DNA of 64,000 bases from Gammaproteobacteria bacterium (GCA_041395725.1 JAWKZW010000001.1:919127-983126), one strand, 5' to 3'; numbered from the stretch's first letter, positions 4,409 through 57,164 are shown. Notes: a model not told the origin generated them from the letters alone. Program-made: numbers and translations.

Positions 4409-7400
4409 TTGAACTGGAGGCTCACCTTGGGTGTCGCAGCAAGCGCCGGACAAAGCACAGGAAAAAGAACCGGAAAAAGTCCCGCGGAATCGAATCCGGC
4501 CAACGGCAATGGACAGCGACAATGGCTGCGGTTTATCACGGCGGCGAGTCTGTTCGACGGCCACGATGCAGCTATCAATATCATGCGCCGAATGCTGCAG
4601 GCTTCCGGTGTCGAAGTAATACACTTGGCCCATAACCGTTCGGTGCAGGAAGTCGTCGAAGCGGCCATCCAGGAGGACGTGGACGGTATTGCCATCAGTT
4701 CTTACCAGGGTGGTCACCTGGAGTATTTCAAGTATCTGGTGGACCAGCTCAGAGATCGCGGCGCCGGCCACATCCGTATCTTCGGTGGCGGTGGGGGCGT
4801 AATCATCCCGGCGGAGATCGCGGAACTGCACGACTACGGCGTCGAACGACTCTTCTCCCCGGCAGACGGCCAGAAAATGGGCCTGCAGGGAATGATTGAC
4901 GACATTATTAAGCGCTCCCATGCTGCCAGCGGCAGGCCGGCAGCTCCACCGGCCAGCGAGCTGCCCGGTGGCGACCGGCTGCAGCTGACCCGGTTTATTA
5001 CGGCGCTGGAAAACGGCAGCGTCAGCGCCGAGCAGCTTGAGCTGCTGCGCGGATTGGCGGACCAGGCCGCTGCCACCCCGGTCCTGGGAATAACGGGTAC
5101 TGGCGGTGCCGGTAAATCCTCGCTTACCGACGAACTGGTCAGTCGCTTTCGCCAGGACAGTAATGACAAGGTCTCAATCGCTATTCTGGCCATTGACCCC
5201 ACCAGAAGAAAGACAGGTGGCGCCCTGCTCGGCGATCGTATCCGCATGAACGCCATCAACCACCCAAGTCTGTTCATGCGCTCCATCGCAACCCGTCGGG
5301 CCGGTGCGGAGATCCCGGAGAACCTGCAAGCCATTATAGACGCCACGAAAGCGTCCGGCTTCGATCTGACAATCGTCGAGACACCAGGGATTGGCCAGGG
5401 CGACGCCGGTATCGTACCGTTTGTAGACTGCTCCCTGTATGTGATGACGCCTGAGTTCGGCGCCGCCAGCCAACTGGAAAAAATAGACATGCTGGATTTC
5501 GCCGATCTGTTCGCCATCAACAAATTCGACCGCCAGGGCGGCGAGGACGCGATCAGGGATGTCAGCAAGCAGGTACAACGTAACCGTGCGGCCTTCGATC
5601 TGAGCCCTGACGCTATGCCAGTCTTTGGCACCATCGCATCAAAGTTCAATGACGACGGTGTCACCGCCCTGTATCAGGCCCTGGCCGCAGAGCTTCAGCA
5701 GCACGGACTGAAAGACTTCGAGCGCCATTTAAAACCTGTCAGTACAAAAACCTCCACCCAGCGCACAGTCATTATCCCGGCTCAGCACAAACGCTACCTG
5801 GCGGAAATTGCGGAAACCGTGCGCGGATACCGCAACGAGGTGGAAGCGCAGTCCCGTCTGGCGAGGGAACGTCAGCAACTGCAGGCATCCTGTGCCATGC
5901 TGGCACAGGCGGGCCATAGCCCGCATGAGCTGGAATCCTTGATCGCTCAGCGCGAGCAGTCCTTGAGTCCAGAGGCAAGAAAGGCGCTGGCGGCGTGGCC
6001 GGAAATCCAGGCAAGTTATGGCGGCAGTGAACTGGTCGTGCAGGTCAGGGATCGGGAAATCCGGACCGCGTTGAAACAGACTACTCTGTCGGGAACTGCC
6101 ATCCCCCGGGTTGCCCTGCCCCGTTATCACGATGAAGGCGATCTGTTGAGCTGGTTGATGCTGGAGAACCTGCCCGGCTATTTTCCCTTCACCGCCGGCG
6201 TCTTCCCGTTTAAACGCGAGGAAGAGGACCCTACCCGCATGTTTGCCGGTGAAGGGGACGCCTTCCGCACCAATCGGCGTTTCAAACAGCTGTCAGAGCA
6301 CTCGGAGGCCAAGCGCCTGTCCACTGCCTTCGACTCGGTGACGCTGTACGGTTTCGATCCTGACGAGCGCCCGGATATCTACGGCAAAGTGGGCAACTCC
6401 GGTGTGTCTATTGCCACCCTCGATGACATGAAAGCTCTGTACCAGGGTTTCGACCTCTGTCACCCGACCACCTCCGTATCCATGACGATCAACGGCCCGG
6501 CGCCCACCCTGCTTGCCATGTTCCTGAATACCGCCATCGATCAGCAGCTGGAAAAATTCAGCGCCGCGTGCGGCAGGCAGCCGGACGAGAAAGAGACCCG
6601 GGAGATTACCGCCCGGGCCCTTGGAAGCGTCAGAGGCACAGTACAGGCGGATATTCTCAAGGAGGATCAGGGCCAGAACACCTGCATCTTCTCGACGGAG
6701 TTCAGCCTCAAGCTGATGGGGGACATTCAGGAATATTTTATAAGCCGGGACATTCGCAACTTCTACTCGGCCTCCATCTCCGGTTATCACATCGCCGAAG
6801 CCGGTGCCAACCCGATCTCGCAGCTGGCCTTCACCCTGGCCAACGGCTTCACTTTCGTGGAAGCTTATCTGGCCCGGGGCATGAAGATCGACGACTTTGC
6901 CCGTAATCTTTCCTTCTTTTTTTCCAATGGCATGGATCCGGAGTATACGGTCATGGGGCGCGTGGCACGGCGGATCTGGGCCACGGCCATGCGCTACAAG
7001 TACGGGGCCAACGAACGCAGCCAGAAACTGAAGTACCACATCCAGACCTCAGGCCGGTCATTGCACGCCCAGGAAATGGCCTTCAATGATATACGCACCA
7101 CCCTGCAGGCACTGATCGCCATTTACGACAACTGCAACAGCCTGCACACCAATGCCTACGACGAGGCGATTACCACGCCCACCGATGAATCGGTACGGCG
7201 GGCGATGGCAATTCAACTGGTCATTAACAAGGAATGGGGGCTGGCAAAAACCGAGAACCCCAACCAGGGCGCTTTCATCATCGAGGAGCTGACTGATCTG
7301 GTGGAGGAAGCGGTACTGTTGGAATTTGAGCGCCTGTCCGATCGGGGCGGGGTTCTGGGCGCCATGGAGACCGGGTACCAGCGCGGCAGAATCCAGGACG

Positions 7401-7732
7401 AATCCATGCACTACGAACACAGGAAGCATGACGGCAGCCTGCCGATTGTCGGGGTCAACACCTTTCTCAGCGCCAATGCCGAACCGGCAGGTTCTGAAAT
7501 TACCCTGGCCAGATCCACAACCCGGGAGAAAGACAGCCAGATCGAACGGTTACGGGATTTTCAGGCCCGCAATCGCCCGCAGTGTGAGGAGGCGCTGCAA
7601 AGTCTCAGACTGGCAGTGGCTGACAATGCGAACGTCTTCGCTGAATTGATGCAGGCAGTAAGGTACTGTTCACTCGGTCAGATTACCGACACGTTCTTCG
7701 AGGTCGGAGGACAGTATCGGCGCACCATGTAA
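4409..7732 (+). CDS. icmF: Fused isobutyryl-CoA mutase (B12-binding domain + MeaB-like GTPase + mutase substrate domain)
   Basis: 1107-aa ORF with an N-terminal B12 domain ([20 protein letters not shown]), a central G-protein P-loop ([13 protein letters not shown]) and a C-terminal methylmalonyl-CoA-mutase-like barrel. There is no in-frame ATG before the conserved region, so a TTG start (4409 or 4427) is required. Confidence 0.9.
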
Positions 7733-12835: not shown

Positions 12836-15800
12836 TCACCGGGCGCCCGCCTGCAGGCCGAACTCCAGCACCAGCCAGCCGTCTTCGTCCGGCTCGCCAG
12901 CTTGTGATTCACCAGTCCCCAGTTGTGCAGGGTCCAGTTCTCCTCCCGCCAGCAGGAAATCCCTGATGGCAGTAACACGGGCTTCGGCGAGCGCTTTCAG
13001 CTGCTGATCAGAGACGGACTCCGCGGCAGTCAGACGGCTGCGAAGGTCCTCCACGTAGGCCTGCACATCCGGCTGGCGGCTGGACAAGGGTTCACCGGTC
13101 AATGGATTAGTCACGGTGGTCTCAATGTAATTGGCCGCCTGCAACTCCGCCGGAGAGGGAGTCAGACCAGCCTCCAGGTACAGGGCTTCCAGGGCCGCGA
13201 GACGCCGGTCAGTTAGCGACGATTCCTGATCCGGCAATTCTTCGATACGGGCATTCACCTTCTCGATCATCAGGCTTTCCTGCAGTGCCTGACGATCGGC
13301 TTCCCCCGCCAGCAGCGGTAATTCCAGCACCAGCTCAGGCCGCTGCGCCAGAGCCTGACGCAGCTGGTCCAGCACCTGGCGTTCCGGCGGTGCGAGAGCA
13401 GCCCGGCCGGCCTGAAATTTTATGTTGCTGATATCGTCTTCCTGCCCCCCCACCAGTGAGCCCAGCAGCCGGAACGGCGCAGTCACCAGGTTGGTCAGCA
13501 CATTGGTGAGAGCCCGGCGTATTGCCGGCCCCAGGTTAAACTCCGGGCTGTTGACATCGCCGCTGACTGGAACTTCCAGATCGATTACTCCCCGGCTGTC
13601 TTTAAGCAGGGCCATTGCCAGATCCAGGGGCAGGTCCATGGCGTCAGGATGCTCAACCCGCGCACCGAGGCTCAGGTCACGCAACACCACCTGATTATTA
13701 GCCGTCAATTGACCGGCCTCCATGAGGTAGGAGAGATCCACGTCCATGTTGCCACTGGCGATTTCACGACCGGCGAACTTAATAACATAGGGTGTCAGTG
13801 GCGGCAGGTCCAGATTGCGAAACTGCAGCTCGATGCGACTCTGCTCCGTAATCGCGAAGGGATTGAAACTGCTGTCCAGCTGCACCAGGCCGTATTCATC
13901 CACATTCCCTTCCAGGATGAATTCAATAGGCTGACTGGACGGCGCCGAGAAACCCTCGGCCGTGCCTGCCAGTTCACGGATGTCGGCGGCAAACGGAATC
14001 GGCAGGTTCAGGTCGGTGAAATGAGACGCGCCGTTGGCTACCTGGATCCGGCCAATGGTCAGTGTCACGGGTAATGCCGCTGTGACGGCGGCGGTGTCGG
14101 CGTTAGTGTCGGCGTTAGTGCCGGTCGTTGCTTCCAAGGTTGTAGCGGCGGCGGTCGCGGCGACTTCAGAACCTGAGGTATCGGTTTGCCTGGCGAGCTG
14201 GCCGACATTGGTGCTGCCGTCTTCGTCAATCAAAACCCGCGCATAGGGGGAATCGAAAACCAGCTCGGAAATGTCCAGCGAGTTCCCGGCCAGGGAAAAG
14301 CTCACCCCGGTTACCGCTAATTCTGCCAGACTGACCAGAGTTTCCTGTAACCGCTGATCCGCCACCGAGAGCTCACGCAGCTGAACATCGCCCCGATAGG
14401 AAAAGGGTTCGTCGCCGCTCACCCGCAGCTCGCTCTGAAATTCCAGCAGTGCGCTTTCCAGCTGCACCAGTGCATATTCACCGATATAGGGCTGCAGCAC
14501 CGTCAGATCCAGCGCTGCCAGCGAGGCGCTGGCGTTCAGAACCGGTTCCGGCAGGGCACCCACTTCACCCTGCACCTGCAGTTCGCCACCGGAATCGAAG
14601 GCCACGCTGACCTGCAGCGGGAACAGGGCCTCTGCCTGATTGCTCAGATCGGTCAGTTCCACATTCAGCTGGACGCCGAACTGGCCGGGTGTCTCCAGGC
14701 TGCGGTCGCTGAATGTCACCCGATTATCCACCAGCACCAGGCGCTCCAGGCTGAGTTCCCAGGGGGCCCCGGCACTGGCCTGATCGGCAGCCGGTGTTGT
14801 CGGGCCAGCGTCAGCGTCGCCGGTCATGGCAGCGATCATCTGCTGCAGGTTGATCTGCCCATCGGCCTCACGGGACACTGCCAGCTCGACCTGGTCCAGT
14901 TGCAGGCTTTCCAGTTCCACGCGATTGTCTGGTATGGCTACACGGCCGTTGCTCACCTGGAGACGACCGGCGGTCAGAAAGGGCTGGGGCTGTCCCGCCT
15001 GCACAGCGGCCAGGTCACTGACCGACAACTGCACCTGATCCAGTGCCAGGACCAGTTGCTCGCCGGACAGGTCAAGCCGATAATCCAGCCCGGCGTTCAA
15101 TCTGCCGCTATCGAGAGTCAGTGGCAGGGTGTCCTGCAGGTAGCGGCTGACCACGCCGAGCGAAAAATTCTCCAGGTTAAGCTCACCCGTGAACAGCGGT
15201 GGATTAAGCTGCAGTTCACCACGCCAGCCCAAACGCGCCTGATCTTCAAAGTCAAAGGTCAGGACATTCGAGCCTTCACTGTCCCGCAACGAGGACAGGT
15301 TGGCAATTCGAGCGTCCGTCAGGGTAAGCGTGGTCTCGAAAGGGGTAACGGGTACTTCATCCCTGATAGAGAGATTGATATCAGTAAGGCTGATATTTTC
15401 AAGCTGGAATGGAAAGGGTTCGCTCGCCTCTTCCGGTTGCAGTTCAGGCGGGGCAGCCGGCCCGGTGGCCGTCGCCGACCAGGTCTGTGCCAGCCGCGAC
15501 ACTGTATCCAGCCCGTCCTGATCGCGTTCAAAATAAAATTGCAGGCTCTGCACCGACAGTTCGGCAAGCTGTAATCTGAGCAGTGCCAGCCTGGTCGGTT
15601 GCACGTTGGCAGTTAGTGTCTGCATTTCCAGCAGTGGTCCGGTAGTCCTGTCAACGACCTGCAGACCATCCACCCGGGCATAGAAAGTAAAAGGGTTGAA
15701 GTAGATCGATTCCACCTCGGTGGTCAGACCCAGGCGCTGGTCCGTAATTGACCTAAGCTGTCTTTCCGCCAGCCACGGTACACCGAAAAAGCCTGTCAGA

Positions 15801-15877
15801 GAATAAACGACCAGGACACCCGCGCACCACCAGGCTGGCTTGGGAATATTCTTAAGAATTTCTTTTACGGGTCTCAT
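12836..15877 (-). CDS. DUF748 domain-containing (AsmA-like) giant envelope protein
   Basis: 1013-aa ORF with an N-terminal anchor KPAWWCAGVLVVYSLTGFFGVPWLAERQL, then long repetitive beta-rich sequence typical of DUF748/AsmA-like proteins. Confidence 0.75.
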   Translation of the reverse strand: MRPVKEILKNIPKPAWWCAGVLVVYSLTGFFGVPWLAERQLRSITDQRLGLTTEVESIYFNPFTFYARVDGLQVVDRTTGPLLEMQTLTANVQPTRLALLRLQLAELSVQSLQFYFERDQDGLDTVSRLAQTWSATATGPAAPPELQPEEASEPFPFQLENISLTDINLSIRDEVPVTPFETTLTLTDARIANLSSLRDSEGSNVLTFDFEDQARLGWRGELQLNPPLFTGELNLENFSLGVVSRYLQDTLPLTLDSGRLNAGLDYRLDLSGEQLVLALDQVQLSVSDLAAVQAGQPQPFLTAGRLQVSNGRVAIPDNRVELESLQLDQVELAVSREADGQINLQQMIAAMTGDADAGPTTPAADQASAGAPWELSLERLVLVDNRVTFSDRSLETPGQFGVQLNVELTDLSNQAEALFPLQVSVAFDSGGELQVQGEVGALPEPVLNASASLAALDLTVLQPYIGEYALVQLESALLEFQSELRVSGDEPFSYRGDVQLRELSVADQRLQETLVSLAELAVTGVSFSLAGNSLDISELVFDSPYARVLIDEDGSTNVGQLARQTDTSGSEVAATAAATTLEATTGTNADTNADTAAVTAALPVTLTIGRIQVANGASHFTDLNLPIPFAADIRELAGTAEGFSAPSSQPIEFILEGNVDEYGLVQLDSSFNPFAITEQSRIELQFRNLDLPPLTPYVIKFAGREIASGNMDVDLSYLMEAGQLTANNQVVLRDLSLGARVEHPDAMDLPLDLAMALLKDSRGVIDLEVPVSGDVNSPEFNLGPAIRRALTNVLTNLVTAPFRLLGSLVGGQEDDISNIKFQAGRAALAPPERQVLDQLRQALAQRPELVLELPLLAGEADRQALQESLMIEKVNARIEELPDQESSLTDRRLAALEALYLEAGLTPSPAELQAANYIETTVTNPLTGEPLSSRQPDVQAYVEDLRSRLTAAESVSDQQLKALAEARVTAIRDFLLAGGELDPAQLGTGESQAGEPDEDGWLVLEFGLQAGAR
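14094..14117. repeat. In-frame 12-bp tandem duplication (GTGTCGGCGTTA x2) inside the DUF748 gene
   Basis: Read directly from the sequence. It encodes the TNADTNAD duplication in the protein. Confidence 0.9.
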
Positions 15878-35494: not shown

Positions 35495-35548
35495 TTGACA
35501 TTACGCCTGCAGGTGCTATTTTTTTAGCACACTGTTGCTTTTTTAGCA
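35495..35548 (+). promoter_or_regulatory. Candidate promoter (TTGACA-16 nt-TATTTT) overlapped by palindrome GTGCTA-N6-TAGCAC, followed by TGCT-N5-AGCA
   Basis: Read directly: TTGACA 35495-35500; perfect 6+6 palindrome 35513-35530; second weaker dyad 35536-35548. It lies about 260-310 nt upstream of the BlaI-family repressor gene. Confidence 0.35.
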
Positions 35549-35618
35549 GGGAGGGTGAAGCCCAGGGACCACGAGGGGAATAATCACGAAGCGGGTCGGC
35601 ATGAAAAGGCCCATGAAC

Positions 35619-35648
35619 AGATAGAGATAGAGATAGAGATAGAGATAG
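35619..35648. repeat. Hexanucleotide microsatellite (AGATAG)5
   Basis: Five perfect tandem units read directly, in the leader region upstream of the blaI-like gene. Confidence 0.95.
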
Positions 35649-35807
35649 AACCAGGTATCAGGCAGGCAATGAACCAGACGACGAGCCAGCCGAACAGCCA
35701 GGCAGCGAAGCTCTATCAAGACAGCCCGGACACCGGCGACCCTGCCAGCAGTTCAGGCCGGCGGCTCAAACCACTGCAACTGACGACTTAAACGGCGATC
35801 TCAGCAC

Positions 35808-36200
35808 ATGCCAACGACACACCTCAGCAGGCGCGAACGACAGATCATGGACATTGTCTATGAACTCAGGGAAGCCTCTGCAAAACAGATCCTCGATCGA
35901 CTGCCGGATCCACCGAGCTACTCTGCCGTCCGTGCCTTGCTGGTAAAGCTGGAAACCAAGGGGCAGCTGAAACACCGGGAACAGAATCTCAAGTACATTT
36001 ATTACCCGGCCCACGACCATGAGGACGCGCAACGTTCGGCGGTTTCCAGACTGCTCAAGACATTCTTTGATGGCTCGGTATCACAGGCAATGAATGCCAT
36101 GATAGATCTTTCCGGTCAGGAAATTCCTGACCAGGAACTGCAGGATCTGGAACAATTGATACAAGAGGCAAGAAACAGGAAAGACGAAAGCAAGAAATAG
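35808..36200 (+). CDS. BlaI/MecI/CopY family transcriptional repressor
   Basis: 130-aa ORF. LSRRERQIMDIVYELREASAKQILDRLPDPPSYSAVRALLVKLETKGQLKHR is a winged-helix of the Penicillinase_R family. Confidence 0.85.
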   Translation: MPTTHLSRRERQIMDIVYELREASAKQILDRLPDPPSYSAVRALLVKLETKGQLKHREQNLKYIYYPAHDHEDAQRSAVSRLLKTFFDGSVSQAMNAMIDLSGQEIPDQELQDLEQLIQEARNRKDESKK

Positions 36201-36226
36201 ATTCCGCTCAGAGGGATAGAATAACA

Positions 36227-37816
36227 ATGACAACAATTATCACCAGCCTCGATCTCCTGCAAGCCCACAGCCCGGTGTTCTATTTCTGGGTGGACACGTT
36301 TATCAAGGCGTCATTGATTGTCCTCATAGCCCTGCTGCTGCGTTGGACGTTCCGTCGTCAGTCCGCGTCCAGCCACAGCCTGATCTGGCTGATTGCCCTG
36401 GCCAGTTGCCTGTGCCTGCCCCTGTTCAAGTTAATCACTCCCCGAATCGAGTTCGCAGTTTCCTTTACTGTAAGCGATGCAGCCCCGGCATTGGGATACC
36501 TGGCCGAGCAACTTCTGGAAACCCCTGCCGAGTTTTTTGCCAGGCTCACGATACTGGCAGAGTTTCTGGGCTGGTTCTACCTGGCCGGCGTGCTCTTCAT
36601 GGTCGCCCGCCTGCTCACCGGTGTCCTGTCACTTGCCGGACTGAGCAAGCGGGCATACGCAGTACCTGGGCACCCGGCCCACAGCCTGCTGGCAGGCTTA
36701 CTGAACGACAATGGCAGCGCGGCAGAAGTGGAATTACTTTTCAGTCCCGGGGCACAGACTCCTTTTACGTGGGGTGTTGTCCGTCACCGGCTGATCCTGC
36801 CGGAAACTGCGCTCGAATGGGAGCCGGCGCCGCTCACCCAGGCCATCGGCCACGAGCTGGGACACATTCAGCGCAATGACTGGATAGCACAAATGCTGGG
36901 CAGGCTCGCACTGTGCATCTATTGGCCCAATCCACTGCTCTGGCATGCAGTCAGACGCATGAAGCTGGCCAGTGAACATGCCTGCGATGATGCGGCCGTG
37001 GACAGTTGTGGTTCTGCAGTGGAATACGCGTCCAGCCTGCTCAAACTGGCCAGCAGGACCCGTCACCGGTTGCGCCCGCTGAATGCGGCCATAGGGCTGA
37101 TCCCAAAAGCTTCAGAGCTCGGTCTGCGTATCCGGCATATCGTGCATTCCGACAGGAACCGGGAGTTTTTGCGGGCAGACGAGATTTGCGCCGCTACAAC
37201 TGCAACCCTGCTGCTGGTCATTCCCTTTTCCTCTATTGAACTATCCGCCCGCATCGTGGAACCAACCCAGGCAGCCAGAGCAGTCGTACCGGTCAGCTTC
37301 GGCCTGCCGGCTGGAAATCTGCCTTCGGATGCTGCTTACCAGGACACTGCGCTTATCAATCCCGTATTGAATCCACCCCGGCAATTCCAGTCGGGCTCCC
37401 GGACTGTCGAGCGCTTGAACACGCCGCCAGGTGCCGCACAAACGGGTCAGTTGGCACGGCTTGCTGTGGCGGACAGCCCATCGGCTCTGGCAGACAACAT
37501 CGACTTTACGGTCTCACCAGAAGCGCTGTTCAAGAAGTGGGAAGCGGCACCACTCATAGTTTCAGCACCGGCGTACCCGCCTCACGCCTTGCAGCGTGGC
37601 ATTGAAGGGCATGTGGTCGCAGAATTCAGCCTGGATGAAGAAGGCCGGGTAAGAGAGACAACAATAATAGAGTCAGTACCAACTGGCGTGTTCGACACGG
37701 CGGTATTGCGGGCGGTAAAGAAGTTTGTTTACTGCCCGGAAGTCGTGGATGGAATCGGCGGGAATAACCAACCAATCAGAAAGCGGTTTTCGTTTGCCCT
37801 TGACGGCCTGCTCTAG
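36227..37816 (+). CDS. M56 (BlaR1/MecR1-type) zinc-metalloprotease signal transducer fused to a C-terminal TonB domain
   Basis: 529-aa ORF with N-terminal TM helices, HELGHIQRND (HExxH) and EHACDD, a further TM, a linker, then the TonB_C-like PAYPPHALQRGIEGHVVAEFSLDEEGRVRETTIIESVPTGVFDTAVLRAVKKF. Confidence 0.8.
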   Translation: MTTIITSLDLLQAHSPVFYFWVDTFIKASLIVLIALLLRWTFRRQSASSHSLIWLIALASCLCLPLFKLITPRIEFAVSFTVSDAAPALGYLAEQLLETPAEFFARLTILAEFLGWFYLAGVLFMVARLLTGVLSLAGLSKRAYAVPGHPAHSLLAGLLNDNGSAAEVELLFSPGAQTPFTWGVVRHRLILPETALEWEPAPLTQAIGHELGHIQRNDWIAQMLGRLALCIYWPNPLLWHAVRRMKLASEHACDDAAVDSCGSAVEYASSLLKLASRTRHRLRPLNAAIGLIPKASELGLRIRHIVHSDRNREFLRADEICAATTATLLLVIPFSSIELSARIVEPTQAARAVVPVSFGLPAGNLPSDAAYQDTALINPVLNPPRQFQSGSRTVERLNTPPGAAQTGQLARLAVADSPSALADNIDFTVSPEALFKKWEAAPLIVSAPAYPPHALQRGIEGHVVAEFSLDEEGRVRETTIIESVPTGVFDTAVLRAVKKFVYCPEVVDGIGGNNQPIRKRFSFALDGLL

Positions 37817-37862
37817 CGGGCAGTTCAAGGGCGAGCAATAACCGGTTAACAGGAGGCCGATC

Positions 37863-38477
37863 ATGCATACCATCAACATTCACTTACTGAGAGTACCTAC
37901 CGCCCTGTTCGCAGCGGCAATCGTTACAACCACGTTGTTCTTTCTGATGCATCTGATGGTGCATTCCGACAGTGAGCGAGTCCAGGAGACTTTTGTAATT
38001 CCTGTCGTCGACGCGACCATGCCGGTGATAGAGATGGAGACCTTTGAGCCCATTGAAAGACCGGAACCTATCACGGAGCCGACGCCCACGGAGGTACCCG
38101 AGAAACCGCGAGATACCCCTGTCGGTTCCGTGCCAGTCCTGAGCTATGACCCACAGACCTTCGTGCTGGATCCACCTGGCTGGACTGGTCTGACATTTCA
38201 GGACAGCGAAATGGTGCCAATAGTCAGGACCACCCCGGTCTATCCGAATCGGGCACTGCAGAAGCAGATCGAGGGTTTCGTAGTAGTCAGTTTCAGCGTG
38301 GATGAACAGGGCAACGTGAGCAACCCGTCTGTAACCTATGCCGAACCGGAGGGTTATTTCGAGCGCGCCGCCCTGCAATCCATCGCCAAGTGGCGATACG
38401 CGGCCAAAGTTGAAAATGGCCAGCCGGTAGCGGTTCACGGCGTTCAACAACGCATCGTTTTCGAAATAGCCCGCTGA
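37863..38477 (+). CDS. tonB: Energy transducer TonB
   Basis: 204-aa ORF with an N-terminal TM, a Pro/Glu-rich spacer (EPIERPEPITEPTPTEVPEKP) and a C-terminal domain TPVYPNRALQKQIEGFVVVSFSVDEQGNVSNP. Confidence 0.8.
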   Translation: MHTINIHLLRVPTALFAAAIVTTTLFFLMHLMVHSDSERVQETFVIPVVDATMPVIEMETFEPIERPEPITEPTPTEVPEKPRDTPVGSVPVLSYDPQTFVLDPPGWTGLTFQDSEMVPIVRTTPVYPNRALQKQIEGFVVVSFSVDEQGNVSNPSVTYAEPEGYFERAALQSIAKWRYAAKVENGQPVAVHGVQQRIVFEIAR

Positions 38478-50279: not shown

Positions 50280-51065
50280 ATGATCAAATGGCTAATCGGA
50301 ATGAAATGCTTAATAAAACAATATCTACTTGCCTTTGCGCTGCCTATAGCTGCCTACCCATTGGGAGCCTATTCGGCAGAATTGCTGGATGAGACCAGAA
50401 CCACAATTCGCGAGTGGGTAGAGACTGAGCAGGCAATTTCTCACGAAAAAAGCCAATGGCGGGAAGAGCGCGCCTCATTGACGACACTGCTATCTATCCT
50501 AAGGGCAGAAGAGGAAACACTTAACGAAGAAATAGCCCTCGCTCAGGACATCGCAAGTCGTGCAGATGAAGAAAGACTTGTTTTAGTTGAACAACTCTCG
50601 TCATATCAGGAAGTATCAGCGTTACTGGAAGTCCTGATCTCAGACTACGAAAGGCAACTTAAAATTATTGAGAGCTATCTTCCTCAGGTATTGCGTAGCG
50701 AGCTGCAGCCACGCTTGAACAGGTTGCAGCAAGAGCGAACCTCCCATTCTTTGAGTGAACGAACACAGAATGTGCTGAATATTCTGGCGGAGATTGAAAG
50801 TTTTGACTCCAGGATTACGCTGGCCAGCGAATTGATCAGTGTCGAACAGGATCAATCCATCGAAGCACGCATATTGTATCTCGGGCTTTCAAAAGCATTT
50901 TTTGTGAATGAAAGTGCGACAATTTCTGGCTACGGATCGCCTTTTGACACTGGCTGGCAGTGGCGGACTGACGAGACATTGAGTGGTTCAATAGTGAGAG
51001 CGATCGATGTCTATGAGACACGGTTGACCCCGCAACTTGTCACCTTACCACTAAAGGTGGACTGA
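50280..51065 (+). CDS. DUF3450 domain protein (coiled-coil periplasmic partner of TonB2-type systems)
   Basis: 261-aa ORF with a signal peptide, then coiled coil (IREWVETEQAISHEKSQWREERASLTTLLSILRAEEETLNEEIA). It overlaps the next gene by 1 nt. Confidence 0.7.
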   Translation: MIKWLIGMKCLIKQYLLAFALPIAAYPLGAYSAELLDETRTTIREWVETEQAISHEKSQWREERASLTTLLSILRAEEETLNEEIALAQDIASRADEERLVLVEQLSSYQEVSALLEVLISDYERQLKIIESYLPQVLRSELQPRLNRLQQERTSHSLSERTQNVLNILAEIESFDSRITLASELISVEQDQSIEARILYLGLSKAFFVNESATISGYGSPFDTGWQWRTDETLSGSIVRAIDVYETRLTPQLVTLPLKVD

Positions 51066-52483
51066 TGAATCAACTTATAGAATTCACTCATCGACTGATT
51101 ATGCTGGTCGCCTTTTCCGCTTTCATGTCCGTGGCGGTTACTGCACAGGATGTCTCCCTGGATCAGGTTCGGATTTCGGTAAATTCAGATCTTGAGAATT
51201 CGCTGCGCGAACTGTCAACATTGAGAGAGGAGATAGCAGATGAAAAAATACCACTGGTAACGGAGCTCAATGAACTTGAAGGTAGCATCAGGCGATTAAG
51301 AAACGAAGCGGCACGGTATCAGGCGTTAAGAGACAGCAGAGAGTTGGGATTAAGCGATATTCAGAGTCGGTTGCAGGCCTGGGAGAATGAGAACACCTAT
51401 TTGTTGAATTTACTGGGTGAGTACGCGTCTCGCTTTCGAAGCAATCTCAATATTTCAGAATTGAATCGATTCGAACAGATACTGCAAGAGATTGATTTGC
51501 AAGACGACTCCATAAACCAGGAAACCAATCAGGTGGAGACAGAGTTGGAATTGGTGGCTCTTGGACTTGACCGGATCCGAAGTTCTTTCGGAGGAGAACA
51601 GTACGCAGGCAGCATAGTTGGCGAAGACGGAAAGTTGATTGATGGCGGATTCACTCGGTTCGGCCCGATTGTCTATTTCCTCGATGAGGGAAGCCAGATT
51701 GCCGGGTTGGTTACTGTCGAAGATGGTATCAGCGCACGTATTCTGGAAATGCAGAACGAGCTTGACAGCTATGTACGTCTGGCGACTGGTGACAGGGCTT
51801 CCATGCCGGTTGACGTATCAGAAGGCAAACTCCCTCTGATTTCGTCAAGCCAGGACTCGCTACTGGTGCACATAGGCAGGGGCGGAATCTGGATCTACCC
51901 CATCCTCTTCTTTGCTTTTATTTCACTGGCTATTGCGCTTTTTAAAGCTATACAAATACTTCGAATAAAGATGCCCAAAATAGAAGAAGTGCGAAGCATC
52001 CTGGCCAGTATCCGCTCCGATGATCTGCTGTCCGCAAAAGTATTAGCAGACAAAATGCCGGCTCCCGTAGGGCCCATGCTGAATCACGGTATTGACAACC
52101 TGGGTCAACCCAGACAACTGCTTGAAGAAATCCTGTACGAGAAAATACTGGATACCAGGCCAAGGCTGAATAATCTTTTACCAGTAATTGCTACTACAGC
52201 GGCCATTACACCACTTCTTGGTTTGTTGGGCACAGTGACCGGAATGATAAACACGTTTAATCTGATTTCGCTGTTTGGTACAGGTGATACTCGAATACTC
52301 TCCTCTGGTATATCGGAAGCACTTGTTACAACCGAATTTGGGTTGATCGTCGCAATACCCGCACTGATTATTCATGCAGTGCTGAGTAGAAGAATACGAA
52401 CGATATTGGGAGATATGGAAAAATACGCACTTATTTTCAGCAATGGCCTGATCACAGATGACCAGAGCAGGCTGCCAGCATGA
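51065..52483 (+). CDS. Large MotA/TolQ/ExbB proton-channel family protein (TtpC-like)
   Basis: 472-aa ORF with an N-terminal periplasmic region of about 270 aa, then 3 TM helices with TPLLGLLGTVTGMINTF and GISEALVTTEFGLIVAIPALI. Confidence 0.8.
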   Translation: MNQLIEFTHRLIMLVAFSAFMSVAVTAQDVSLDQVRISVNSDLENSLRELSTLREEIADEKIPLVTELNELEGSIRRLRNEAARYQALRDSRELGLSDIQSRLQAWENENTYLLNLLGEYASRFRSNLNISELNRFEQILQEIDLQDDSINQETNQVETELELVALGLDRIRSSFGGEQYAGSIVGEDGKLIDGGFTRFGPIVYFLDEGSQIAGLVTVEDGISARILEMQNELDSYVRLATGDRASMPVDVSEGKLPLISSSQDSLLVHIGRGGIWIYPILFFAFISLAIALFKAIQILRIKMPKIEEVRSILASIRSDDLLSAKVLADKMPAPVGPMLNHGIDNLGQPRQLLEEILYEKILDTRPRLNNLLPVIATTAAITPLLGLLGTVTGMINTFNLISLFGTGDTRILSSGISEALVTTEFGLIVAIPALIIHAVLSRRIRTILGDMEKYALIFSNGLITDDQSRLPA

Positions 52484-52971
52484 TGGACTTCTGGCTCAGT
52501 TTCTGGAGCGTCACCAGTGGCGGTGGGCTTCTGATGCTGGCGTTATTTGGATTGGCACTAGTGATTTACTGGCTATCGATCGACACTTTGTTAACAATTC
52601 CCGGCACTGTGCGAAAGCAGGAATCTTTATTGGCTGGCATTAACACACGCCAGGACATTGAAGTTTTTAAAAATGATGTGCTATCACCTATCAAGAGCAG
52701 GAAAGCGCTGATTGCTACTTTGGTAACTACCGCACCGCTTGTCGGGCTTCTGGGTACCGTATCGGGGATGTTGAAAACTTTCAGGGGCCTCAGCACTGGC
52801 AAAGGTGACACTTTTGATCTGGTAGCGGCAGGAATATCAGAAGCCATGATAACTACTGAAACAGGATTGCTGGTAGCCATTCCGGCGACGTTTCTGATCA
52901 TGCTGATAGGGTCGCGAACCCAAATGCTGGAACATTTAGTAGAGATTAACGAGAAAGATATCGGCACATAG
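52480..52971 (+). CDS. exbB: ExbB-like MotA/TolQ/ExbB proton-channel protein
   Basis: 163-aa ORF with an ATGA overlap. APLVGLLGTVSGMLKTF and GISEAMITTETGLLVAIPA. Confidence 0.8.
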   Translation: MMDFWLSFWSVTSGGGLLMLALFGLALVIYWLSIDTLLTIPGTVRKQESLLAGINTRQDIEVFKNDVLSPIKSRKALIATLVTTAPLVGLLGTVSGMLKTFRGLSTGKGDTFDLVAAGISEAMITTETGLLVAIPATFLIMLIGSRTQMLEHLVEINEKDIGT

Positions 52972-53054
52972 AACTTTCGTGTCGATTCGATCGCACCAGG
53001 TGCCAGACTGTTCAAGCAGCAGTAACATGCCTGTAAAAGGAACTTTCAAAGAAA

Positions 53055-53459
53055 ATGAAAAAAACACTTTTCCAGGAAGACGACGTTCAATCCAGTGAGA
53101 TCAACATTTCACCATTGATTGATATCGTATTCATTCTGCTGATCTTTTTCATTGTTACAACTACCTTCGTTGAAGAGGCCGGTGTGGAGATCACAAAGCC
53201 ACAGGCGATCTCTGCTCAGCAGCTTCAGAAGGAGAGTATCATGATAGCCATCACAGATGATGGTCGGGTTGTATACGGCGGCAGGGTAGTCGGGACGGCG
53301 GGCGTGCGCCCTCTTGTAGACAGATTGCTCTCACGTGGCGACCTGCCAGTAATTGTTCTCGCAGATCGCAACGTACGAACTGAGCTTCTGGTAGATGTTA
53401 TCGATGAAGCCAAACTGGGTGGCGCGACCTCTGTAAATATAGCCACAAGAAGCGATTGA
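53055..53459 (+). CDS. exbD: ExbD/TolR family biopolymer transport protein
   Basis: 134-aa ORF. EINISPLIDIVFILLIFFIVTTTF, followed by a periplasmic domain. Confidence 0.85.
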   Translation: MKKTLFQEDDVQSSEINISPLIDIVFILLIFFIVTTTFVEEAGVEITKPQAISAQQLQKESIMIAITDDGRVVYGGRVVGTAGVRPLVDRLLSRGDLPVIVLADRNVRTELLVDVIDEAKLGGATSVNIATRSD

Positions 53460-53480
53460 GAGGTTACTTGGATTCAGGTC

Positions 53481-54137
53481 ATGAAGCACATTCGAACCAT
53501 CTTACTGCGCCGAACCAGCTTCTACACATTGGTTGTAGTCGCACTGCTTTTTGCGCTATTACCGTTAACCCAACGCACAAAAGAAGGCGTGAGTGATGAT
53601 CTGGTTATCACGCGACAAATTGATATTGCCTTACAACCGCCTCCTCCGCCTGAAGAACGGAAGGGGTCGAGCTCAAACAGCAGCCAGAATTCTGGTATCA
53701 ATTTGGAAGCTCTCACTTCCGGCGTAGACCTTCAACCCCTAAGAATTGATGTGGAATCGGTACTTACCGAAGGGCTGGGGCTGGGGTATGAAGGGGCCGG
53801 TCTCGATGTGACACCAAACGCAACGTTTACACTTGAGGGGGTTGGATTTGGTACCAATGGATTGGACAGGCAACCAATTCTGCTTGTCCGTCCTGTTATA
53901 CGAGAGGGGTTATTACGAAGAAGAAGGATCAGTCAATTCGAAGCCTTGGTTTTCGTCAAGTGGATGAAAGACGGATCACTGCGGTTAATCAGAATCGAAG
54001 AAATAGAATATCCGGAACCTGAATTCGCGGCGATGGTTAGAGATGCGATTTCTCAAATGAGATACACCAAACCTACAGTTGACGGTGAACCTGTTGAAAG
54101 GTTTGTCAGACTGCCCATTACCATTCATGCAGGGTAG
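53481..54137 (+). CDS. TonB-like energy transducer (TonB2-type, short Pro-rich spacer)
   Basis: 218-aa ORF with an N-terminal TM, QPPPPPEE, and a C-terminal domain of about 90 aa (PILLVRPVIREG...FEALVFVKWMKDGSLRLIRIEE...RYTKPTVDGEPVERFVRLPI). Position after exbD supports the call. Sequence similarity is judged by eye only. Confidence 0.6.
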   Translation: MKHIRTILLRRTSFYTLVVVALLFALLPLTQRTKEGVSDDLVITRQIDIALQPPPPPEERKGSSSNSSQNSGINLEALTSGVDLQPLRIDVESVLTEGLGLGYEGAGLDVTPNATFTLEGVGFGTNGLDRQPILLVRPVIREGLLRRRRISQFEALVFVKWMKDGSLRLIRIEEIEYPEPEFAAMVRDAISQMRYTKPTVDGEPVERFVRLPITIHAG

Positions 54138-54144
54138 CTTGCAC

Positions 54145-55668
54145 ATGGATATTCTGCCCGGCAATCGCCTAATACTGATAGGTGTATTTTTACTTTTGAT
54201 TGGCGTAATCGAAACAGCGTCCGGACAAGTCGATTGGCCCCATGGGGTCAGAGATTGGAGTGATGCGCAGTTTCAGGCTCGTGTCCAGGGCGTTTACGAT
54301 TGGAAAGGATCAGGGCCGGATCGATTGCAGACATTGGAATACACTGAAGTGCCCATCGATATGTATCAGTTGTCTACAGTAAATAGAGATCTTAACTCGT
54401 TTCCGCCAAGGGACACGATTGACCCGGAGCTGCAATATTTTCCACCGCCCAAGGATTGGGTGGATCGTAAAGACCTGATCTTGAGTATGCGGGGCAGCGG
54501 CGAAATTGATGCTACGTTTTTCGAGGAAAAACTGGATGAGTCAGCCGGTCCTGACACCTACTTTCTCATGGGAAACATCTACTTTTTAAAGAACCGGTTG
54601 GTTGATGCTATCCGGCAATATGAGATGGCTACGGACCGCTTCTCCCGCTTCCGGCTTGCCTATCAGAACATGGCCTTTGCCTATATCAATCTCGGTGATT
54701 GCGACAATGCATTGACCACTATCAACAAAGCAATCAGCTTAGGTGCATTTGGAGTCCGGGTGAAAGGGCTGCAGGGGTATTGTGCTCTTCAACAAGGCAA
54801 CTATGTAACTGCTGCTGACGCACTCGCTATTTCCAGGATGCTTGACAGTGAAAATTCCATATGGCTTGAATTGCAGATCCAGGCACTCATAGGTGCGGGG
54901 CACTATATGCCTGCCAGAAACCTGCTCAGTTCGCATGCAAGCAGGTTGCTCGACAGCTCTCGAATCCTCGATTATTTGATTTCTATTGCGCAGAGTGACA
55001 GCGATTGGGAATCGTTACATAGTCTGTTAGAAGTCAAGCGCATTGCCGGACAACTCACCAGCAAGGAAAACGCAACACTTCAACGATTGCGAGCCTCTCA
55101 AGGATTACCGGTCTCAAGAGGAGAAGTCGGTAGTCTACTTAGTGTTATGGATGCTGATAGCTACATAGCTGATTCCGCCCAGATAATGTCAGAATTGATT
55201 GACAATGAAGCGTGGGAGATCGCATCAATTGTAGGTGATGGAGTCATTGAGAGCTTAGCCGGGGGTCCGGTGTCGGCGGATTCAGCCAATATAATCTACC
55301 TTCAAGCAAGTATATTAACCACGCAAGGGCAAATTGAAGAAGGAAGTGCACTACTGGATGAACTTTTGCGGGCCTATCCGATCCATTGCGAAGCACTGAT
55401 ATTGCGAGCTGAGCAATTTAATCAGCTGGACGAACTGCAGCAATCGCATGAGTATTTTAACCGGGCGATACGAAGTTCGAGTAGTTGCAGTGAAAAGGCA
55501 AGATTAGAGTACGCGGATGTTCTGATACAAAGAGAAGACTACTCTCACGCATTTGAGCTCTACCAGACCGATCGTCGCCAGAAAGAAATCGCTGGAATCA
55601 TTGATACAGCTATTGCCAGAAAACTGGTTGAGGCCCTTGCACGCCTGACCCAGGCATCAGTTCAATGA
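54145..55668 (+). CDS. TPR-repeat protein (TtpD-like), N-terminal membrane anchor/signal
   Basis: I prefer ATG 54145 (MDILPGNRLILIGVFLLLIGVIETASG); the track ORF at 54079 overlaps tonB. Repeated TPR-like A/Y/L patterns are present (YFLMGNIYFLKNRLVDAIRQYEMA...). Confidence 0.65.
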   Translation: MDILPGNRLILIGVFLLLIGVIETASGQVDWPHGVRDWSDAQFQARVQGVYDWKGSGPDRLQTLEYTEVPIDMYQLSTVNRDLNSFPPRDTIDPELQYFPPPKDWVDRKDLILSMRGSGEIDATFFEEKLDESAGPDTYFLMGNIYFLKNRLVDAIRQYEMATDRFSRFRLAYQNMAFAYINLGDCDNALTTINKAISLGAFGVRVKGLQGYCALQQGNYVTAADALAISRMLDSENSIWLELQIQALIGAGHYMPARNLLSSHASRLLDSSRILDYLISIAQSDSDWESLHSLLEVKRIAGQLTSKENATLQRLRASQGLPVSRGEVGSLLSVMDADSYIADSAQIMSELIDNEAWEIASIVGDGVIESLAGGPVSADSANIIYLQASILTTQGQIEEGSALLDELLRAYPIHCEALILRAEQFNQLDELQQSHEYFNRAIRSSSSCSEKARLEYADVLIQREDYSHAFELYQTDRRQKEIAGIIDTAIARKLVEALARLTQASVQ

Positions 55669-57164
55669 TACCCATTAGTTATTCACCTCTTAAGAGGGAG
55701 CCGATGCTCAATCGGATTACAGTCAGTCTTATCAGCAGGTTTATACTCGGCTTGTCGACTATATTTGGCTCTGGGTTTATCCATGCCCAACTGGCGCCAG
55801 GTCCTGATGAGCTGGGTCTGAGTTTGTCTGACCCCCAATTCTCCCAAGAGTTTAATGGCAGCTTTGAAGTCGGACTGAGACCTGGAGCTCCCGCACTGGA
55901 CGAACGGGAAAGTGTCATCCTGCAAGTTGTAAGCGACATGTATGTCGAGGACATTGATGCAGCATTGCGCTTCATCTTTGATGAAAACCGGCGTGAGGAA
56001 CTGCGGATACAAAGCGATCGTCGATATCGGCAAGGCAACGAACTGGATTTAGTCTACTCTGCCAATATCGAATACGCCATTGGTCAGTTATACCAACTCA
56101 AGCGGGATCGACGCCGTGCTGAGGAGTATTATTTCCAAGCTATCGAAAAATACCCCTCTTATGTTGATGCATACGTTCGACTGATGGAACTCTACCTTAA
56201 TGAAGAGGATTGCGAAAAAGCCATGGAGGCAGGCAGGAAAGCGATAGAGATTGGGGGTGTAGATGGATATGTGTTTAAAGGATTCGGATTATGCCATATT
56301 CAGAATCTGGACCATGACGCCGCACTGACAGCTTTTAGAATGGCGAGTACTTTTCTACCTGAAGATGAATCAGTACAGTATTACTATGCTTTGGCGGCTT
56401 TCAATGCGGGGTATTCATTGGAAGCTATCGGAATACTCGACCAACTAATACATGATTATCCGCAGAATAGAAACTATCACTTTCTATTAGTTAACGCCTT
56501 TCTACAGGACAGCAACTACCAGGGAGCACTGGAAATTCTTGAAATCGCGCATAGAAAAGGCATGGGTAACGCGTCTTCTTATTCCCTATTGGGCGATATT
56601 TATATCGGTAATTCTATGCCTGACGCTGCAGCAGTTGCATACGTTTCAAGCTTGACGACGGATGAGCTTCCTTCTTTCGATACTGCACGAAAGCAATTTG
56701 ACAACCTGGACAGACTGAATGCAAGTGATGCTACCGAGCAATATTTCGCTGAACTAGTCATTGCCTTTGAGGGCCGTCTGAACCGGATTGAGTCTCGCGA
56801 GTTAGATATTCTGCGCGCCAGGGTCCTTATCGATAACGGACAGGCACCAGATGGAATCAGTATCCTACAGAGTGTTATAGAAGATGATCCTATGAACGGA
56901 GAAGCGTCACTTTCACTGGCCAGGTACTACAGCCTTCAGAGTGACTTTGAGCGCGCGTCAATATATTTCCAACAGGCAGCTAATGACGACGATATTGCGC
57001 TTACTGCATTGACAGAGAACGCTCAACTTGCAATTGATAGACAAAACTGGAACCAAGCGTTCGATTTACTGTTCCAGGCAAGTCAAAAAGCGAATTCTGA
57101 ATCAGCAGAAATAATAGACAACAATCTCAAAGCGATCGAACGTATACTGGATTTATTGGAATAA
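55665..57164 (+). CDS. Second TPR-repeat protein with signal peptide
   Basis: 499-aa ORF with an ATGA overlap with the previous TPR gene. TPR-like repeats are present (AIGQLYQLKRDRRRAEEYYFQAIEKYPSYVDAYVRLMELY...). Confidence 0.65.
   Translation: MIPISYSPLKREPMLNRITVSLISRFILGLSTIFGSGFIHAQLAPGPDELGLSLSDPQFSQEFNGSFEVGLRPGAPALDERESVILQVVSDMYVEDIDAALRFIFDENRREELRIQSDRRYRQGNELDLVYSANIEYAIGQLYQLKRDRRRAEEYYFQAIEKYPSYVDAYVRLMELYLNEEDCEKAMEAGRKAIEIGGVDGYVFKGFGLCHIQNLDHDAALTAFRMASTFLPEDESVQYYYALAAFNAGYSLEAIGILDQLIHDYPQNRNYHFLLVNAFLQDSNYQGALEILEIAHRKGMGNASSYSLLGDIYIGNSMPDAAAVAYVSSLTTDELPSFDTARKQFDNLDRLNASDATEQYFAELVIAFEGRLNRIESRELDILRARVLIDNGQAPDGISILQSVIEDDPMNGEASLSLARYYSLQSDFERASIYFQQAANDDDIALTALTENAQLAIDRQNWNQAFDLLFQASQKANSESAEIIDNNLKAIERILDLLE

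Follow-up and report, generated by a model that had tools for sequence, protein, structure and literature searches.

Organization of the locus

We analysed a group of three genes, hereafter the triad, in a 64,000-nt stretch of DNA from the metagenome-assembled genome (MAG) of an uncultured gammaproteobacterium (JAWKZW010000001.1:919127-983126); the whole stretch is referred to as the window. The triad occupies positions 35808-38477 and encodes a BlaI-type repressor, an M56 membrane protease fused to a TonB C-terminal domain (TonB_C), and a short stand-alone TonB. The original prediction, made from the sequence alone, had proposed three co-oriented genes here, and all three open reading frames (ORFs) were recovered at exactly those positions on the plus strand. 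It had also given intergenic gaps of 27 and 46 nt, of which the latter is right and the former measures 26 nt. A Shine-Dalgarno-like GAGGG or AGGAGG lies in each gap.

Domain searches with Pfam and NCBIfam gave scores above the curated cut-offs for the domains of all three genes, which bears out the predicted combination of repressor, protease fusion and TonB. The first gene (35808-36200, +, 130 aa) matched Penicillinase_R (PF03965) with 86.5 bits against a cut-off of 22.6 (E = 2e-24), covering all 115 of 115 model positions. Its product aligns over residues 3-120 with MecI (1SD6, 1OKR) and BlaI (1SD4), and has the winged-helix DNA-binding domain followed by a C-terminal helical dimerisation domain that characterizes the BlaI/MecI/CopY family. 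The second gene (36227-37816, +, 529 aa) matched Peptidase_M56 (PF05569) at residues 22-302 with 108 bits against a cut-off of 31 (E = 6e-31) and TonB_C (PF03544) at residues 447-510 with 52.7 bits (E = 6e-14). The NCBIfam model TIGR01352 matched residues 448-525 over model positions 1-75 of 76. A C-terminus of about 90 aa that did not score as TonB_C had been named as grounds for abandoning the prediction, and the score obtained removes that objection.

The third gene (37863-38477, +, 204 aa) has the domains expected of a TonB, namely a transmembrane (TM) anchor at residues 8-35, a Pro/Glu spacer with 17% Pro, and a TonB_C domain with a YP motif at residues 125-202 (67.3 bits, E = 1.6e-18). 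Its best match in the PDB was Vibrio anguillarum TonB2 (2K9K, E = 1.8e-17). In a provisional comparison with the E. coli sequence, the motor-binding SxxxH motif (Ser16/His20) of the TonB TM helix appears to be lacking, with no His at the aligned position. The nearby H30 is Gln in one orthologous locus (L004) and Phe in a more distant one (L009). The earlier description of this protein as canonical therefore holds for its anchor, spacer and YP-containing TonB_C domain and not for the histidine at the H20 position. The fused and stand-alone TonB_C domains share approximately 33% identity with no sign of covariation, and at that identity a recent duplication of one from the other was ruled out.

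A BlaR1-like protease with a TonB_C domain in place of the sensor

The fusion protein is divided into three parts. An M56 module (residues 1-340; 36227-37246, +), supported by Pfam, conservation and Foldseek, comprises TM1-3, a cytoplasmic gluzincin domain and TM4. It is followed by a periplasmic linker (residues 341-445; 37247-37561, +) with 11% Pro that is predicted to be disordered, and by the C-terminal TonB_C domain (residues 446-529 and the stop codon; 37562-37816, +), supported by Pfam, TIGR01352 and PDB matches. All of the motifs quoted in the original prediction were located in this protein: HELGHIQRND at residues 209-218 (HELGH, 36851-36865, +), EHACDD at residues 250-255 (36974-36991, +), and PAYPPHALQRGIEGHV. 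The M56 module thus has the HExxH and downstream Glu in a four-TM scaffold that typify BlaR1 and MecR1.

Hydropathy analysis placed four TM segments at approximately residues 20-40, 50-70, 107-135 and 320-340. Lys and Arg are absent from the N-terminus, and the loop at residues 41-50 is positive, as expected from the positive-inside rule. From the TM count and this charge pattern, residues 136-320, with HELGH and EHACDD, are predicted to be cytoplasmic and residues 341-529 periplasmic, as in BlaR1. An AlphaFold2 model built from a 17-sequence alignment (mean predicted local distance difference test, pLDDT, 69.6) had high confidence in the TM/protease core and in the segment 446-529, whereas the linker was disordered with pLDDT below 50 throughout. 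The segment equivalent to the autocleavage loop of BlaR1 (residues 283-292) was modelled with low confidence.

Comparison of the model with the PDB using Foldseek matched its N-terminal part to the cryo-EM structures of S. aureus BlaR1 (8EXS, 8EXQ, 8EXP and 8EXR; E = 1.7e-6), with a TM-score of 0.62 on the 241-residue chain 8exr_A, such that residues 1-340 correspond to BlaR1. Residues 446-529 matched the C-terminal domains (CTDs) of receptor-bound TonB (6I97_D, TM-score 0.76; 2GRX_C, TM-score 0.85 and root-mean-square deviation 2.0). A sequence search of the PDB with the same domain found TonB2 (2K9K, E = 6e-12) and also P. aeruginosa TonB. Together with hydropathy and charge, these matches agree with the predicted BlaR1-like topology of a cytoplasmic protease and a periplasmic TonB_C domain. 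No transpeptidase or beta-lactamase-fold domain was matched by Pfam or NCBIfam, the C-terminus being TonB_C instead. The generic BlaR1 model (NF000326, blaR1_generic) has a cut-off of 400 bits; the fusion protein scored 74.5 and aligned at model positions 5-327 only, which is the M56 part.

Residues H209, E210, H213, R216, D218, E250 and D254 were invariant across the 17-sequence alignment and reached 90% conservation or more in 148 representatives from multiple phyla. This near-invariance speaks against the concern that the M56 part might be degenerate. The YP motif is retained in the fused TonB_C domain, as are residues equivalent to E. coli Gly174, Phe180 and Gly186, and the equivalent of Trp213 is Phe in the window's clade. 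Conservation hence supports a protease and a TonB_C domain that are both likely to work. The linker's length and sequence are particular to the same clade in the alignment. At approximately 105 residues, this flexible tether has the length needed to reach the outer membrane.

A conserved pair of predicted operators over the promoter-like site

The sole promoter-like site upstream of the triad is of the sigma-70 type (35495-35522, +), with TTGACA separated by 16 nt from a TG-extended TATTTT (10 of 12 matches). The palindromes that had been predicted at 35513-35548 are real, and both overlap this site. Operator 1 (TGCTATTTTTTTAGCA, 35514-35529) is a perfect palindrome over the -10 element and extends in its wider form to GTGCTA-N6-TAGCAC (35513-35530). 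Operator 2 (TGTTGCTTTTTTAGCA, 35533-35548) is a degenerate copy located 3 nt past operator 1. The arrangement is therefore two copies of a TGCTA-N6-TAGCA site covering the -10 and start region.

These elements are conserved in the four genomes in which orthologous loci were compared (the window, L001, L003 and L004). The -35 TTGAC and the 17-mer TGCTATTTTTTTAGCAC of operator 1 are invariant, and the register and spacing of operator 2 are constant, even though the M56 proteins share only 46-52% identity. We consider this a strong phylogenetic footprint of a putative operator. In L009, a Cellvibrionaceae MAG with a triad at 30% identity, three TGCTA-W6-TAGCA sites were found upstream of blaI. 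At least 120 metagenome stretches matched a scan with the double-operator pattern, from which 80 loci were kept. In 60 of the 80, the double operator lies 1-69 nt before blaI and an M56 gene comes next, some with TonB_C and some lacking it. Because of this recurrence, we take the operator to be general to a large branch of BlaI proteins, and autoregulation of the operon through the predicted operators is well supported. Within the 64-kb window, a search allowing up to two mismatches gave 17 matches versus 20.8 expected by chance, such that only the two known sites count.

Some metagenome contigs have a double BlaI-type operator beside genes other than blaI. These include a class-C beta-lactamase-family protein (PF00144; L126:458-2059, -), a 1261-aa CarboxypepD_reg outer-membrane-type protein (L121:35-3820, -), a divergent pair of extracytoplasmic function (ECF) sigma factor and DUF5916-CBM9 genes (L118 and L128), and an unknown secreted protein (L148 and L172). 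Such genes may be regulon members in other lineages.

A leader or insert of 259 nt (35549-35807, +) separates the operators from blaI in this genome only. The blaI ATG lies 10-50 nt after operator 2 in L001, L003 and L004, and the insert is absent from every orthologue. Within it lie an (AGATAG)5 repeat, at about 35619-35648, and an ORF of 78 aa (35555-35791) that includes EIEIEIEIEIE and has a codon-position GC of 0.62/0.42/0.65, similar to real genes. Neither the ORF nor the 259-nt stretch had a match in Pfam. An RNA element was also considered and dropped, as there was no Rfam match at E ≤ 1 and no second copy in the DNA examined.

Distribution of the triad and its relatives

Orthologues were gathered by exact-protein look-ups and the operator scan. 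Among the matches listed by a scan of genome contigs, which did not include the window's own clade, the best had 30% identity. At least five related assemblies keep the window's gene neighborhood, with ubiH-like, MaoC and DUF1499 genes before the triad and ubiF-like, pepP, zapB and zapA genes after it. A second lineage with the triad is Cellvibrionales-type (L009, L141, L164 and probably L153), where it is flanked by metallo-beta-lactamase-fold, OmpA-like or leucine-rich repeat genes on one side and by rsmJ on the other. Envelope genes near these loci include BamC-like as well as OmpA-like ones. In L141, an ExbD gene (381-782, -; PF02472, E = 6e-26) directly follows TonB at the end of the available sequence. 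Since the triad recurs in a different setting, it behaves as a cassette, the same unit in different contexts, and the ExbD gene that follows it in L141 makes its TonB probably a working Ton component.

The co-occurrence of all three genes was narrower than that of the first two. BlaI lies immediately upstream in nearly every M56 locus examined, and beyond the two gammaproteobacterial groups the module consists of two genes, with BlaI directly upstream of the M56 gene and often overlapping it. A tonB gene was co-linear with the fusion gene in 10 loci, all from the two gammaproteobacterial lineages, and a linked TonB was absent from 37 of 47 evaluable M56-TonB_C loci. Hence, the expected pairing of BlaI and protease is general, and TonB as a linked third gene is confined to these lineages.

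The fusion itself is abundant and already on record. At E ≤ 1e-3, an exhaustive phmmer search with the fusion protein returned 73,705 cluster representatives, of which 220 also passed E ≤ 1e-30. Domain order was called with local hidden Markov models (HMMs), which agreed with 29 of 29 precomputed Pfam calls, and M56 was followed by TonB_C in 111 of the best 150 representatives. An InterPro census published in J Bacteriol in 2026 placed M56+TonB_C second in frequency among 254 M56 architectures and found true beta-lactam-sensing BlaR to be less common, at approximately 6% (PMC13492132). The same census reported a BlaI homologue within five genes of 96% of M56 genes, and described M56 proteins fused to Plug or CarbopepD_reg_2 domains (PMC13492132). 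These fusions could be pointing to the world of TonB and its receptors as a recurrent M56 input. Earlier, a 2007 survey (Chu et al.), as cited in PMC10350073, counted the fusion in 9 of 263 TonBs. In 2023, TonB1 and TonB10 of B. thetaiotaomicron were described as having a peptidase domain, which "could suggest a role ... in signal transduction", with the remark that such peptidase TonBs "have not been functionally characterized" (PMC10350073). The fusion itself is accordingly not new, as the architecture had been catalogued and a signalling role suggested.

With PF05569 followed by a C-terminal PF03544 and a BlaI-like gene within five genes, the window system is a further member of this known and abundant class. 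What our analysis adds is a conserved operator pair, a triad cassette in two lineages with a link to ExbD, and a negative result on receptor linkage.

That negative result comes from local HMMs seeded from E. coli ExbB, ExbD, FhuA, FepA and BtuB, whose sensitivity is limited for distant phyla. With these models, only one of the 80 loci (L012) had a TonB-dependent receptor (TBDT) near the M56 gene. A Pfam scan of 56 large neighboring genes found no recurrent Plug or TonB_dep_Rec domain; it did find three CarboxypepD_reg/OMP_b-brl_4 barrels and seven MacB-type permeases.

Proposed mechanism

We interpret the triad as an autoregulated regulated-proteolysis switch of the BlaI/BlaR type in which the TonB C-terminal domain is the periplasmic input, and we assign this reading a probability of roughly 40%. 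In BlaR1, the EL1 loop fills the sensor site until ligand displaces it, and the motion passes via helix alpha-3 to the metalloprotease, which cuts BlaI directly (PMC9834060). The scissile bond of BlaI is an Asn-Phe in the dimerisation helix, and the P1' Phe is almost invariant (PMC9834060). By homology, a proteolytic switch can be called well supported for the window system, and docking to a receptor as its trigger seems plausible.

In the proposed cycle, the repressor would sit on the operators and shut off blaI, the fusion gene and tonB together, because the operators cover the -10 and start of the sole promoter-like site upstream. If the system works as S. aureus BlaR1/BlaI does, a change at the periplasmic domain would pass to the TM bundle and raise protease activity. 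The protease would then cut BlaI in its dimerisation helix, operator binding would be lost and the operon derepressed. The input could be beta-strand pairing of TonB_C with a TonB-box-like strand that is exposed on an outer-membrane protein and reached via the flexible 105-residue tether. A strand of this kind would be a natural input because TonB_C in solved complexes binds TonB boxes by beta-strand addition.

The most economical version would be a generic sensor that responds to TonB boxes left exposed and unserved and adjusts the supply of TonB. We favor such a sensor of Ton demand over a receptor-specific, FecA-like channel because no receptor is linked and the co-transcribed output is TonB. 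More broadly, M56-TonB_C proteins might form a third and very widespread trans-envelope class, in which a passive tethered probe samples TonB boxes and its occupancy leads to repressor proteolysis, here tuning a dedicated TonB supply. We offer this extension tentatively and regard it as doubtful in its full form.

Several observations weigh against the interpretation as a switch. The Asn-Phe dipeptide is replaced in the window's BlaI, where the aligned bond is N96-A97 or A97-M98. Cleavage of BlaI, as implied in the original prediction, is accordingly an extrapolation from homology, and the near-invariant Phe of the staphylococcal proteins is replaced here. The consensus at this position among 80 Gram-negative-type homologues is A|L, which retains a hydrophobic P1'. 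Gene context lends nothing to the claim that docking to a ligand-loaded receptor is the trigger: approximately 47 M56-TonB_C loci had no consistent TBDT or ExbBD neighbor, and there was no TBDT among the five window ORFs of at least 600 aa. The triad's own TonB has no His at the position noted above. The fused TonB_C domain has no TonB-type TM anchor and is therefore not energisable in the usual manner. Autoregulation is the only regulation visible across the 64 kb. A full-text literature search found no experimental study of any M56-TonB_C protein.

EL1 (residues 68-107 in the window protein) is a further point on this side, as it has no TonB-box-like motif beyond a weak trend and was not seen to dock. 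A PROSITE-type TonB-box pattern occurred in 0 of 168 EL1 loops of TonB_C-type proteins and in 0 of 137 other loops. A relaxed pattern occurred in 6 of 168 versus 0 of 137, where shuffled sequences gave an expectation of about 2. Residues 76-93 had low confidence in the AlphaFold2 model and EL1 was not docked. On these grounds, a TonB-box mimic in EL1 was rejected as a general feature.

Alternative explanations

An unlikely alternative is that the sensor monitors the Ton machinery itself, with the fused TonB_C domain pairing or competing with the co-encoded TonB, or sensing the energised state, in the service of TonB homeostasis. The co-transcription of tonB as third gene in two lineages, once with ExbD after it, would fit such a monitor, as would the proximity of stand-alone tonB9 and M56-type tonB10 in B. 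thetaiotaomicron, which are one gene apart, and the lack of a linked receptor gene. The same monitor would have no co-encoded partner in the 37 of 47 evaluable loci without a linked TonB, and the divergence of the two TonB_C domains, with no covariation, does not suggest that they pair. We give about as little credence to a sensor of envelope status, in which TonB_C would bind peptidoglycan or another non-receptor partner, or report the spacing between inner and outer membranes, and respond to envelope damage; many BlaR-like sensors of non-canonical type may work in this way. M56 C-termini are diverse, including M23, amidase and unstructured tails, and only about 6% bind beta-lactams (PMC13492132); TolA domain III has the same fold as TonB_C (Foldseek matches 6S3W and 1LR0); and OmpA-like and BamC-like genes neighbor the Cellvibrionales-type loci. 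Against this, the signature of TonB (YP with the equivalents of Gly174 and Gly186) is preserved in the domain, whose best sequence scores are to genuine TonB CTDs (E = 6e-12 to 1e-9) rather than TolA, and the neighborhood genes differ between lineages.

Much less probable is the absence of signalling. The fusion would in that case be either a paralogue of TonB whose protease part is vestigial or does housekeeping, or a protease acting on other substrates, and BlaI would answer to something else. The NCBI name for the protein is merely "M56 family metallopeptidase" and the BlaI cleavage dipeptide is unconserved, yet the catalytic motif is near-invariant across very wide divergence, BlaI is paired with the protease in nearly every locus, often in overlapping frames, and the protein does not have the N-terminal anchor of a TonB. 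Least probable of all is a sensor of beta-lactams or cell-wall fragments like canonical BlaR1. The operator type recurs before the class-C beta-lactamase-family gene of L126, and metallo-beta-lactamase-fold genes lie near the Cellvibrionales-type triads. However, the operon has no beta-lactamase gene and the blaR1_generic model reached only the M56 part of the protein. We consider beta-lactam sensing effectively excluded because a penicillin-binding or transpeptidase domain is lacking.

Relation to known systems

The proposed switch resembles BlaR1/BlaI and MecR1/MecI of S. aureus. In both, a four-TM M56 protease with a cytoplasmic HExxH...E is encoded immediately after a winged-helix repressor. 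The fold matches 8EXS/8EXR, and palindromic operators lie over the promoter with autoregulation, which is predicted here. In the window protein, TonB_C on a long disordered tether stands in place of the penicillin-binding domain. The operator is TGCTA-N6-TAGCA rather than the TACA/TGTA boxes of staphylococci, and the Asn-Phe dipeptide has been replaced. Neither a beta-lactamase nor a PBP2a target is present, and the Gram-negative host possesses an outer membrane. The BlaIR systems of M. tuberculosis and M. abscessus and CenIR of C. difficile likewise pair BlaI with an M56 protein and respond to an input other than beta-lactams (PMC13492132). Their sensors have short or unstructured extracytoplasmic tails in hosts without a TonB system, in contrast to the defined TonB_C fold of the window protein.

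Among M56-TonB_C proteins, B. thetaiotaomicron TonB1 (BT0813) and TonB10 (BT3898) and examples from X. campestris and B. fragilis have the same order of M56 then TonB_C, as does the InterPro class (PMC13492132). These proteins have a BlaI-type regulator nearby and a proposed role in signalling, and in B. thetaiotaomicron a stand-alone TonB lies close to TonB10. Identity to the catalogued proteins is only about 20-30%, and the window's lineage is set apart by its 105-residue linker, Phe for Trp213, tightly co-transcribed short TonB and defined operator pair.

The likeness to FecA-FecR-FecI is limited to the proposed logic, in which an outer-membrane event would act through a periplasm-spanning inner-membrane protein and regulated proteolysis on a transcription factor. 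The parts are unrelated, and the output would be the cleavage of a repressor, where the Fec system releases a sigma factor. None of the corresponding parts (a TBDT with a signalling domain, a FecR-type anti-sigma factor or an ECF sigma factor) was found at the triad locus.

TonB_C-tailed BlaR-like sensors outnumber genuine beta-lactam sensors. If TonB_C does read the state of outer-membrane transporters, this would account for orphan two-gene modules in their thousands, from Proteobacteria, Bacteroidota and Acidobacteriota among other phyla, and would add a route by repressor proteolysis to signalling from the outer membrane to the cytoplasm. The window offers three aids to the design of experiments: a defined operator pair (TGCTA-W6-TAGCA, 3-nt spacing) at a promoter, evidence for a short TonB as part of the output in two lineages, and the negative result on linkage to receptor genes.

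Ton energisers and other features of the window

The V. anguillarum TonB2 CTD (2K9K) is the nearest match to each of the triad's two TonB_C domains, and a cluster of TtpB/TtpC/ExbB/ExbD type, reminiscent of the Vibrio TonB2 systems (TtpC-ExbB2-ExbD2-TonB2), lies 13 kb from the triad (50280-57164, +). The original prediction had stated that no exbBD or TBDT gene is adjacent; this is accurate for the immediate flanks, and the window does contain ExbB and ExbD at 51065-53459, within the cluster. GC content there is 46-50% compared to 55-60% around it. The cluster encodes a DUF3450 protein (TtpB-like), a 472-aa MotA_ExbB protein (TtpC-like), ExbB (163 aa), ExbD (134 aa), a 218-aa TonB-like protein and two tetratricopeptide repeat proteins. 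Unlike in the Vibrio systems, the triad's TonB is outside the cluster, which has the divergent TonB-like gene of its own (53481-54137). That gene has a TM anchor and a PPPPPP spacer, with no YP motif and no TonB_C match (Pfam, E ≤ 1e-4; NCBIfam, E ≤ 1).

Two large genes elsewhere in the window were also recorded. One (4409-7732, +) encodes a 1107-aa protein of IcmF-like architecture, in which a B12-binding domain is fused to a MeaB GTPase and methylmalonyl-CoA-mutase-type domains. The other (12836-15877, -) encodes a large envelope protein of 1013 aa belonging to the DUF748/AsmA family (PF05359, E = 8e-216).

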